Positions 12,995-14,845 of a stretch of DNA of 26,549 nt are shown in pieces; within the stretch, counting starts at the first letter, position 1; the number at the start of each line of letters is the position of its first letter. Both the position numbers and the translations under genes were made by a program. Below the pieces are notes generated by a model. It was not told where the DNA came from. It did no database searches and worked only from the letters and a program-made list of their open reading frames with translations. Origin of the DNA: a virus (lineage: Duplodnaviria > Heunggongvirae > Uroviricota > Caudoviricetes); the IMG/VR virus record IMGVR_UViG_3300032286_000505, positions 64,001 through 90,549 of that record; one strand, written 5' to 3'.

Positions 12995-14386
12995 ATGACT
13001 ACATTCGCTGAAGCAGTTCTTAAGAGCCCATCAATGGCTCGTACAGAAAACGGTATGAAGGCAAAGGCTCATTCGGGCAATGCCCTTGTAGACCTGTTCT
13101 ACAAGATTGGTGCCAGCCGTGGTAAGTCTGTAACCGCAGACTTCGAAAAGGCATTCCAGGAAGACGCGGACCTAGCAATGAAAATTGCATTCTGGTCACG
13201 TGATGTCCGTGGTGGCGCAGGTGAACGTCAACTCTTTCGTGATGTACTTGTACATCTAGAAAAGTTGCATCCAGCAACCCTGGAAACAGTTCTTCCTTTT
13301 GTAAGCGAGTTCGGCCGTTGGGACGACTTGCTGGTGTTCAAGACTGAAAAGTTCAAGCACATGGCATATACCTTAATCGGTGATGCACTGCGTGAACGCA
13401 ATGGTCTGTGTGCCAAGTGGATGCCTCGTCAAGGACCAATCGCGGTGGAAATCCGTAACTTCTTCGGAATGAGCCCAAAGTTCTACCGTAAGAGTTTGGT
13501 TACATTGACCAATGTTGTTGAAACAAAGATGTGTGCAAAGGACTGGGATTCTATCGAATTCGGTAAGTTGCCAAGTCTGGCTTCGGCTCGTTACAACAAG
13601 GCATTTGGCAAGAACGCCAAGACAGCTTACGAAGCCTACAAGGCTCGTTTGACTGCCGGTACAGACAAGGTAAACGCTAGTGCAGTTTACCCATACGATG
13701 TCATCAAGACCTTGCGTCATGGTGGTGATGGTGTGGTAGCAGATGCTCAATGGGCATCGTTGCCAAACTATATCGGCAATGCCAGCGTTATGCCTTTGGT
13801 CGACGTTAGCGGTTCGATGAGTTGCGCTGTTGGTGGAAACGCCAACCTGCAATGTATCGATGTAGCATTGTCGTTGGGTCTGTACTGTGCTGATAAGAAC
13901 ACAGGTGTATTCAAGGATACATTCTTGACTTTCAGTGCAAAGCCAAAGGCACAGGTTGTTAAGGGGTCGCTATCTCAAAAGATGGCACAAATGAACTCTA
14001 GTGACTGGGGCATGAATACAAACCTTCACGCCGCGTTTGAAGAAATTCTACGTATTGCAGTGAAGGGTGGGATCGCAGAATCCGACATGCCAAAGACTTT
14101 GCTGATCCTTTCGGACATGCAGTTTGATCAATGCGTAAGTTTTGATGACTCTGCACACCAAATGATCGTGCGTAAGTACAAGGAAGCAGGATACGAAGTT
14201 CCGAACATCGTATTCTGGAACCTGAACAGCAAGGACAATGTCCCTGTTAAGTTCGACAAGCGCGGTACCGCGTTGGTTAGCGGGTTTAGTCCTGCAGTTA
14301 TGAAGGGTGTCCTATCGGGCGCTGACATGACTCCATATGGTATCATGCTAGCCACTGTTGACGTAGATCGCTACAGCGTTCTATAA
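12995..14386 (+). CDS. DUF2828-family protein (N-terminal helical region + C-terminal VWA domain; Ro60/TROVE-like architecture)
   Basis: RDVRGGAGER, WDDLL, AKWMPRQG; VWA MIDAS DVSGS, SDMQFD, IVFWNL, LVSGFS. Confidence 0.85.
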   Translation: MTTFAEAVLKSPSMARTENGMKAKAHSGNALVDLFYKIGASRGKSVTADFEKAFQEDADLAMKIAFWSRDVRGGAGERQLFRDVLVHLEKLHPATLETVLPFVSEFGRWDDLLVFKTEKFKHMAYTLIGDALRERNGLCAKWMPRQGPIAVEIRNFFGMSPKFYRKSLVTLTNVVETKMCAKDWDSIEFGKLPSLASARYNKAFGKNAKTAYEAYKARLTAGTDKVNASAVYPYDVIKTLRHGGDGVVADAQWASLPNYIGNASVMPLVDVSGSMSCAVGGNANLQCIDVALSLGLYCADKNTGVFKDTFLTFSAKPKAQVVKGSLSQKMAQMNSSDWGMNTNLHAAFEEILRIAVKGGIAESDMPKTLLILSDMQFDQCVSFDDSAHQMIVRKYKEAGYEVPNIVFWNLNSKDNVPVKFDKRGTALVSGFSPAVMKGVLSGADMTPYGIMLATVDVDRYSVL

Positions 14387-14389
14387 ATA
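14382..14389 (+). promoter_or_regulatory. T4-type late promoter motif overlapping the DUF2828 stop codon
   Basis: TATAAATA ending 8 nt before motif copy 6. Confidence 0.5.
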
Positions 14390-14397
14390 GTGTTGTA

Positions 14398-14562
14398 AGG
14401 TTAGGTGCAGCAATTTTCATATTACTATGGACTGCTAGACCCTATGGTGTTGAATTGGAGCACAGAGTCTTGACCGAGTGCGTTGAAGAGTCAACATTGA
14501 AATAGACTAGCGAGCTCAGAGTGGTGGCCTGAGTTGAATAAAAGCAGCCAACAACTAACCTG
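14398..14562 (+). ncRNA. Helix-CAGCAA motif RNA with a ~140-nt structured insert (copy 6)
   Basis: AGGTTAG-GTG-CAGCAA ... A-CTAACCT-G; inner stems TGTTGA/TCAACA, GCAC/GTGC, CTCAG/CTGAG; contains GACTGCTAG as in copy 2. Confidence 0.8.
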
Positions 14563-14570
14563 TTATACAG

Positions 14571-14814
14571 AGGATGGATTCAGCAACTTTAACAACTAAA
14601 GATGCAACTAATGCAGTAGACAGTGGCCCGCAAGGCTTCATCTAGAAATAGACGCTAAAGGAACTGACGACAGAATGGAAAGACATTCTATGATGTTTGT
14701 ACAGACACAATACAAACTAGGCGACATGAATGTCTGCTAGGGTCTAAGGAACTGAACCGATATACTGGGGATGTGGTTGGACCAGAAAATAAACTTACCG
14801 TTTCGACCATCCTG
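14571..14814 (+). ncRNA. Helix-CAGCAA motif RNA with a ~220-nt multi-hairpin insert (copy 7)
   Basis: AGGATGG-ATT-CAGCAA ... A-CCATCCT-G; hairpins CTTTA/TAAAG, AGAATG/CATTCT, GTTTGTA/TACAAAC, GACAT/ATGTC; AGGAACTGA occurs twice. Confidence 0.8.
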
Positions 14815-14816
14815 CC

Positions 14817-14845
14817 AATAGGACTCTTCGGAGTCCTATTTTTTT
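14817..14845 (+). terminator. Intrinsic terminator
   Basis: AATAGGACTC-TTCG-GAGTCCTATT-TTTTT. Confidence 0.92.

Follow-up and report, generated by a model that had tools for sequence, protein, structure and literature searches.

We analysed a 26,549-nt stretch of DNA (the window; positions 64,001 to 90,549 of the IMG/VR virus record IMGVR_UViG_3300032286_000505), which is part of a 90.5-kb contig from an uncultured, transfer RNA (tRNA)-rich phage of the Caudoviricetes with 22 tRNAs. At 12995-14386 on the plus strand the window encodes a protein assigned by Pfam to DUF2828 (N-terminal) and DUF7788 (C-terminal, vWA), and the stop codon of this gene is followed on the same strand by two tandem structured elements, RNA 6 (165 nt, 14398-14562) and RNA 7 (244 nt, 14571-14814), each closed by the same terminal motif, referred to here as the handle. 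The two elements represent conserved RNA families (A and B, respectively), present in dozens of contigs from uncultured phages, that are linked to DUF2828 genes and, by analogy with the Y RNAs of Ro60 proteins, they are most likely partner RNAs of the DUF2828 protein with new, non-tRNA domains. A first-pass annotation of the sequence had described two motif-closed RNAs of these lengths, 8 nt apart, within a block free of open reading frames (ORFs), with TATAAATA across the stop codon of the gene and a strong terminator 2 nt past the second RNA, and every one of these features was confirmed.

The DUF2828 unit starts with a perfect sigma-70-type promoter (12854-12882, plus strand; 12/12 consensus matches with a 17-nt spacer), one of a set of alike promoters in the window (family D10), where consensus sigma-70 promoters are present. 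Downstream of the promoter, the 5' leader of the gene carries a short handle RNA of 53 nt (copy 5; 12918-12970, plus strand) with perfect 7-bp closure and CAGCAA, whose 3' end lies about 20 nt ahead of the ribosome-binding site (RBS). Copy 5 is conserved in 21 of 21 close relatives with covarying stems, and the DUF2828 protein could regulate its own translation through it. Between the stop codon (14384-14386) and the next ATG (14903) there was no ORF of 50 or more amino acids on either strand, the largest having 40, and a small-protein reading of the RNA 6/7 block was set aside on that ground. The unit is closed by an intrinsic terminator (14817-14846, plus strand), a 10-bp stem with a UUCG loop ahead of a T run. 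Close relatives have this terminator after their last RNA, or directly after the stop codon where both RNAs are missing. No terminator was found between the DUF2828 gene and RNA 6, so early transcripts of the gene must contain both RNAs. RNA-repair-type genes (HD and metallophosphatase) also lie near the locus.

The TATAAATA box (14382-14389, plus strand) overlaps the TAA stop codon and precedes the first base of RNA 6 by about 6-9 nt. It matches the T4 late-promoter box and is a candidate T4-type late promoter. Among close relatives the box is kept wherever an RNA follows and is altered in the two that have no RNA. It is not enriched genome-wide (7 copies against about 6 expected), so the argument for a promoter is one of placement. 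Three of the six other forward copies lie about 20 nt upstream of an RBS and ATG (3003-3010 and 18572-18579 in the window, and C1:62509 in the genome), which suggests that the phage uses T4-like late transcription. The RNAs would thus have two modes of transcription, early by read-through and late from a promoter of their own. As RNA 7 lacks its own promoter, the pair is probably made as a single precursor that is trimmed afterwards.

The handle consists of a 7-bp stem (AGG plus four variable bases), N3 and CAGCAA, with the complementary strand followed by G at the 3' end. In RNA 6 the stem is formed by 14398-14404 with 14555-14561 and CAGCAA occupies 14408-14413, while the stem of RNA 7 is formed by 14571-14577 with 14807-14813. 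Nine perfect copies were found on the plus strand of the contig and none on the minus strand, closing elements of 53-62 nt, of 116-119 nt (those with tRNA-like inserts), and of 165 and 244 nt. Across the six copies in the window the four variable stem pairs covary, the two arms being exactly complementary in each. Handles also close tRNA-like RNAs located 5-20 kb away, inside tRNA arrays. A strict motif scan over 739 kb of related loci returned 198 elements on the strand of the gene, compared with 6 on the other strand and 1-3 in shuffled sequence; a second set of ten family B loci (98 kb) gave 31 handle elements, all on the gene strand, and the background in unrelated viral DNA was 13 in 1.28 Mb of scanned strand. 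The handle pattern is far beyond chance. A tRNA-like gene of 114 nt in the window (791-904; 47 bits as a tRNA) has its anticodon region broken by a 53-nt insertion with CAGCAA.

From its 5' end RNA 6 comprises the handle (P1), a hairpin (H1), helices P2 and P3, a kink-turn-like core, P4, P5 and an A-rich tail that returns to P1. P2 is formed by 14433-14438 with 14507-14512, the core (14456-14459 and 14482-14488) caps P4 (14460-14481), and P5 occupies 14513-14535. The architecture of family A was obtained from constrained folds of 21 members, in which H1 is short and directly follows CAGCAA, P2 is long-range, P4 often has a GNRA or other stable tetraloop, and P5 occurs in two types. A covariance model (R2) built from seven members scored RNA 6 at 159 bits and detected 41 elements, 29 of them distinct, at an E-value of 1e-8 or better. 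In the commoner version of P5, carried by most family A members (e.g., L002 4090-4125), a conserved loop with UUUCGAU recalls the T-loop of a tRNA; RNA 6 of the window has the other type.

The core of family A has UGGA ahead of P4 and, after P4, a variable 3-nt bulge (UUU, GUU, UGU or UAU) followed by GAAG. It is invariant in 20 of the 21 full members, and the helices on both sides of it covary. This agrees with the kink-turn consensus (a canonical helix, a 3-nt bulge, tandem sheared G.A/A.G and a non-canonical helix), the sequence pattern being present in the same 20 members, and the core is a putative kink-turn assigned from that pattern. Kink-turns occur in ribosomal RNA (rRNA; Kt-7), box C/D RNAs and several riboswitches, and the family A core is like them in its Watson-Crick helix, variable bulge, invariant tandem G.A/A.G and covarying second helix, as far as the sequence pattern goes. 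An alternative pairing of the core offered by the energy model was discarded, as it breaks in members with a bulge other than UUU.

RNA 7 is more elaborate and consists of P1, H1, P2, a P3 junction with a GAAA-capped hairpin, P4-P6, P7, a pseudoknot and an A-rich single strand. P2 pairs 14614-14617 with 14663-14666 and P7 pairs 14741-14747 with 14777-14783. Across family B the long-range P2 and P3 enclose a junction with a GNRA-capped hairpin, three more hairpins have conserved loops, and P7 is long. In the pseudoknot (14748-14752 with 14800-14804), five bases from the interior of P7 pair with five of the 3' tail, 2 nt before the 3' strand of the handle. The covariance model for this family (R1), made from six members with a structure derived by hand, scored RNA 7 at 252.6 bits and found 27 full-length elements above 88 bits, 20 of them distinct. 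A third family of large cargo, of about 210-280 nt and mostly closed by GGGAUGA...CCCG, has some hairpins in common with family B and scored 24-42 bits with R1 (L022 2241-2464; L026 401-624; L029 4399-4618; L037 4558-4779; L067 4457-4738; L071 4621-4831). At another locus (L014 6390-6523) the contig end past the terminator repeats the first ~130 nt of its own family B RNA, through either a tandem duplication or an assembly artefact.

These structures also account for secondary motifs to which the first-pass annotation had drawn attention. Their recurrence was reproduced (CTGCTAG at 5890, 14432 and 14734; GACTGCTAG at 5888 and 14430; AGGAACTGA at 14659 and 14747), but they are helix strands and not a shared protein-binding signal. 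CTGCTAG in RNA 6 is the 5' strand of P2; of the two AGGAACTGA copies in RNA 7, the first forms the 3' strand of P2 and the second pairs as the 5' strand of the pseudoknot.

Single-sequence folding energies of the two RNAs were unremarkable (z-scores of -0.8 and -1.9), and the case for structure rests on covariation. In family A, 87.8% of pair cells held standard pairs compared to 31-44% in slid controls, the covariation score was 0.435 compared to 0.05-0.09, and double-sided changes were seen in 29 of 35 pairs compared to 6-15. The 20 distinct members of family B behaved similarly, with 91.0% standard pairs (30-44% in slid controls), a covariation score of 0.468 (0.04-0.07) and double-sided changes in 33 of 41 pairs (6-10). 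The family B pseudoknot was found in about 10 compensating versions and was 85% paired in columns not fitted to it, compared to 26-55% when slid. Plain MAFFT alignment with RNAalifold recovered each fold only in part. Judged by this comparative signal, RNA 6 and RNA 7 are shown to be real conserved structured elements, and the 29 distinct members of family A and 20 of family B establish the conservation in related phages on which the first-pass proposal had been made to depend.

Neither RNA matched an Rfam family. Rfam at gathering thresholds returned only tRNAs over the whole window, and permissive Rfam scans gave nothing meaningful either in 14300-14920 or at a distant locus that has three such RNAs; a match to Atu_C8 covered the terminator only, and one to DUF805b reached 16 bits. 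The inserts resemble no Rfam family, including rRNA, transfer-messenger RNA (tmRNA), RNase P and 6S. Tests for tRNA-like cargo in RNA 6 and RNA 7 with ARAGORN and the Rfam tRNA model were both blank, and that possibility was set aside, in agreement with the first-pass description of the inserts as not tRNA-like. Megablast and blastn searches with the gene plus RNAs, or with the RNAs alone, found no match in 50,697 phage records. R1 and R2 detected neither family around the DUF2828 gene in any of six cultured phages (Cronobacter S13, Vibrio nt-1, Listeria A511, Synechococcus BUCT-ZZ01, Ralstonia RSP15 and Pseudomonas Milchi), with only weak handle-level matches in Ralstonia RSP15.

A protein-based scan of viral contigs yielded 80 loci, 21 of them close relatives (87-95% protein identity) and 59 distant (54-60%). 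In most close relatives the stop codon is followed by RNA 6, RNA 7 and then the same terminator, and some have shortened or alternative versions of the RNAs. In the clade of the window the pair is found downstream of the gene, and in the distant phages upstream, with the A-then-B order kept in both; family A is almost always immediately ahead of family B. The reverse test searched viral contigs for a 14-nt word taken from the tail of family B, which is single-stranded. It hit at least 118 stretches; 80 of them were listed as loci, and most of these were chance matches. Full-length family B elements were present in 10 of the 80 listed loci (145-232 bits). A DUF2828 gene lay 60-300 nt downstream on the same strand in all 10 of these and in none of the other 70 listed, and an element of family A length directly preceded family B in most of the ten. 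RNA 6 and RNA 7 are thus linked to the DUF2828 gene.

The product of this gene matched DUF2828 (E-value 1.5e-27) and DUF7788 (8.2e-50) in Pfam and belongs to PHROG 850, annotated as 'RNA-binding protein'; a search of NCBIfam gave no match. Homologues were identified by tblastn in 711 phage records from many host groups, the nearest cultured relatives being mostly T4-like (Straboviridae) phages. DUF2828 homologues carry a virion or structural-protein annotation in some jumbo phages. An AlphaFold2 model made from 28 homologues (predicted local distance difference test score 79; predicted template modelling score 0.74) was compared with the PDB using Foldseek. The top 13 matches were all Ro60/Rsr structures, aligned over the full length of the model (template modelling scores of 0.40-0.59, E-values down to 6e-9), including the Ro60 of Thermus phage phiLo, Deinococcus Rsr, and Xenopus and human Ro60 (9KOP, 2NVO and 1YVR among the structures), and the matches below them were isolated vWA domains. 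In the vWA half of the protein a DxSxS...T...D pattern (residues 270-274, 342 and 374) is invariant among homologues and reads as an intact metal ion-dependent adhesion site (MIDAS), which hints that the ring may also bind a protein ligand. The HEAT-repeat ring plus vWA domain with MIDAS that typifies Ro60 is present, the ring shape being taken from the predicted model. On this model the DUF2828/DUF7788 protein would be a sequence-distinct branch of the Ro60 fold.

Y RNAs tether PNPase to Rsr, and the Ro60 of Thermus phage phiLo binds two adjacent Yrl RNAs (PMC4201824, PMC12135203). The window locus resembles the known Ro60/Rsr systems (Deinococcus Yrn1; Salmonella and mycobacteriophage YrlA/YrlB; phiLo Yrl1/Yrl2) in having a HEAT-repeat and vWA protein, predicted to be ring-shaped, beside its small RNAs. 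Such loci likewise have several different RNAs each and in phages lie among tRNA and RNA-repair genes. Y RNAs are built from a terminal stem of the 5' and 3' ends with a conserved protein-binding site and from a second, variable effector module, to which the covarying 7-bp stem, CAGCAA and variable insert of the handle RNAs correspond. Unlike bacterial Y RNAs, RNA 6 and RNA 7 are far larger, have tertiary-type folds of their own and contain no tRNA-like domain. The YrlA model (RF02553) found no match in 14300-14920 even at E-values up to 10, and matched a sister handle RNA (8108-8225) over its full length at 31.8 bits (E-value 3.5e-5), below the threshold of 69.

The short handle RNAs have a different counterpart. 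Dictyostelium Class I RNAs are about 60 nt long and end in CUGU, and their terminal stem is accompanied by an 11-nt motif that ends in CAGCAA; they are reported from dictyostelids only, and the sole direct protein partner named is an RRM protein (PMC7919456). The handle RNAs of about 55-60 nt are like them in the stem, the CAGCAA motif after its 5' strand, the CUG(U) end and the variable interior, and differ in a spacing that is off by one nucleotide. Four of these sister RNAs matched the Class I model (RF01414) in register at 27.7, 20.6 (copy 5), 18.6 and 17.0 bits, against a threshold of 41.5. Class I is defined by a length of 42-65 nt, a 6-bp terminal stem, an 11-nt motif beside the 5' strand and a score above the Rfam threshold; RNA 6 and RNA 7, with 3-4 times the length of its members and no match to RF01414, fall outside it. 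We treat the likeness of the short handle RNAs to Class I RNAs as a resemblance and do not claim homology.

In the Listeria phage CKA15, a DUF2828 homologue was detected in purified virions, and very abundant unannotated RNAs map near its gene, which the authors suggest are possible Y RNAs (PMC12282133). In the related Listeria phage A511, the gap directly upstream of the DUF2828 homologue gp178 is filled by three handle RNAs in tandem (56, 56 and 106 nt; L095 3290-3553, minus strand), and the genes just downstream of gp178 code for an RtcB ligase and an HD hydrolase. The A511 handle RNAs could not be equated with the abundant RNAs of CKA15, for which the text of the paper gives no coordinates. 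A 660-nt unannotated stretch of A511 (L095 4144-4802, minus strand), with a near-consensus promoter at its start and no handle, may be one of the abundant CKA15-type transcripts. We found no paper describing DUF2828-linked RNAs; what is new is how the two large inserts are built, to which transcription unit they belong and what they are linked to.

We consider it fairly probable that RNA 6 and RNA 7 are separate folded non-coding RNAs whose handle docks on the Ro60-like ring and whose cargo serves as adaptors or decoys. They are likely to be partners of the DUF2828 protein because the handle is common to the tRNA look-alike RNAs of the phage, and since the protein model has a Ro60 fold, a Y-RNA-like partnership is the best reading. 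The two RNAs would be transcribed in tandem by read-through from the strong early DUF2828 promoter and probably also from a T4-type late promoter that they have to themselves at the stop codon; either way, transcription would end at the one terminator. Each RNA would have two modules, the shared handle and a large autonomous cargo domain. The handle would be the likely docking site for the DUF2828 ring, as the terminal stem of a Y RNA is on Ro60. The cargo of RNA 6 would form a bent three-helix domain with a kink-turn, and that of RNA 7 a multi-hairpin domain locked by its pseudoknot beside the handle. These domains would probably bring a second macromolecule to the ring, as adaptors or decoys, for example a host RNA-decay or RNA-repair enzyme, and would act beside the tRNA-shaped cargos borne on the same handle elsewhere in the genome. 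Transcription start, processing and protein binding are inferred, and so, by analogy with Y RNAs, is the adaptor role. The first-pass annotation had gone as far as calling RNA 6 and RNA 7 the main partner RNAs, with inserts that could tether other proteins. Discrete structured non-tRNA RNAs, the shared closing motif, the tight DUF2828 linkage and the Ro60-fold model speak for partner RNAs, but neither the status of main partners nor tethering, plausible as the latter is by analogy with Y RNAs, found support.

Several observations weigh against a Y-RNA-like partnership. The gene adjoining RNA 6 and RNA 7 has a Ro60 fold by model, but by sequence it is DUF2828/DUF7788, with no TROVE domain in Pfam and no sequence match in the PDB. 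The handle (7-bp stem and N3-CAGCAA) is unlike the helix through which known Y RNAs bind Ro60, and RNA 6 and RNA 7 match none of the Y-RNA models in Rfam. Three close relatives (L002, L005 and L006) have RNA 6 only and in two others (L018 and L019) the stop codon leads straight to the terminator, and therefore neither RNA is essential to the protein. Finally, because the alignments used for covariation were fitted to the model structures, pairing is inflated; the slid controls and the pseudoknot columns that were not fitted nevertheless argue for a real signal.

Among other explanations, the cargo domains could be decoys or sponges, imitating a host RNA or tying up a host protein or defence nuclease, with the ring only stabilising or delivering them. 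This has in its favour the tRNA mimicry of sister RNAs on the same handle, the setting of the loci among genes for tRNAs and genes of RNA-repair type (in the window HD and metallophosphatase, in A511 RtcB and HD) and the presence of a homologous protein in purified CKA15 virions. The inserts match no family that they could be mimicking in Rfam, however, and since the idea overlaps that of adaptors, the two are hard to tell apart by sequence; as a separate explanation we think it unlikely. Alternatively, RNA 6 and RNA 7 could be cis-acting elements in the untranslated region of the DUF2828 messenger RNA, through which the protein binds its own message and tunes its stability or translation. The read-through into the RNAs in early transcripts would fit, as would the handle copy just ahead of the RBS and the location of families A and B in the gene leader of distant phages. 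What makes this rather unlikely is that the RNAs stay intact when their position flips between upstream and downstream, that the same handle closes tRNA-like RNAs 5-20 kb off in tRNA arrays, that TATAAATA ahead of RNA 6 tracks with the presence of RNA, and that two elaborate conserved tertiary folds exceed the needs of a binding site.

The occurrence of handles within tRNA arrays, and even in one tRNA-like gene, could also mean that the handle is a processing or stability signal read by something else, for instance an RNase of the host or phage or a tRNA-processing enzyme, and that its proximity to DUF2828 reflects a shared island of RNA metabolism. With DUF2828 linkage at 10 of 10 family B loci against 0 of 70 other listed loci at 60-300 nt, and with this linkage surviving rearrangement and holding across phage families (as in the three tandem handle RNAs before the A511 homologue), we regard this as quite improbable. 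The compact folds, GNRA loops, kink-turn-like bend, pseudoknot and many invariant unpaired nucleotides might instead belong to a catalytic or ligand-sensing RNA, one or both cargo domains then being ribozyme- or riboswitch-like. No known ribozyme or riboswitch family matches, though, there is no expression platform, and the form of the RNA is constant whether it lies upstream or downstream of the gene, all of which makes such a function very improbable indeed.

Ro60 and Y RNAs form an RNA-surveillance particle that has long been studied and is still poorly understood. The window would add a sequence-distinct branch of the Ro60 fold, paired with a different RNA handle, and indicates that such a handle can bear large non-tRNA domains with tertiary-type folds of their own. 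RNA 6 and RNA 7 represent structured RNA families that are both new, and for each the architecture is clear, the transcription unit is defined and the genomic partner is strict. If the cargo does recruit host factors, phages would retarget a Ro60-like ring by means of interchangeable RNA adaptors, which would bear on Y RNAs generally. A bolder proposal, which we put forward as improbable, is that the CAGCAA handle is a universal plug for DUF2828 rings and that RNA 6 and RNA 7 are the first large, autonomously folded effector domains on it, working as a fixed A-B pair to recruit or inhibit a host enzyme of RNA decay or repair during infection; the handle would then be homologous to that of the Class I RNAs, in one ribonucleoprotein family across viruses and eukaryotes.

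Elsewhere in the window, two ORFs of 471 and 456 amino acids inside the tRNA array begin with DNA that is 71% identical (1007-1204 and 3741-3938, respectively) and look like paralogues.

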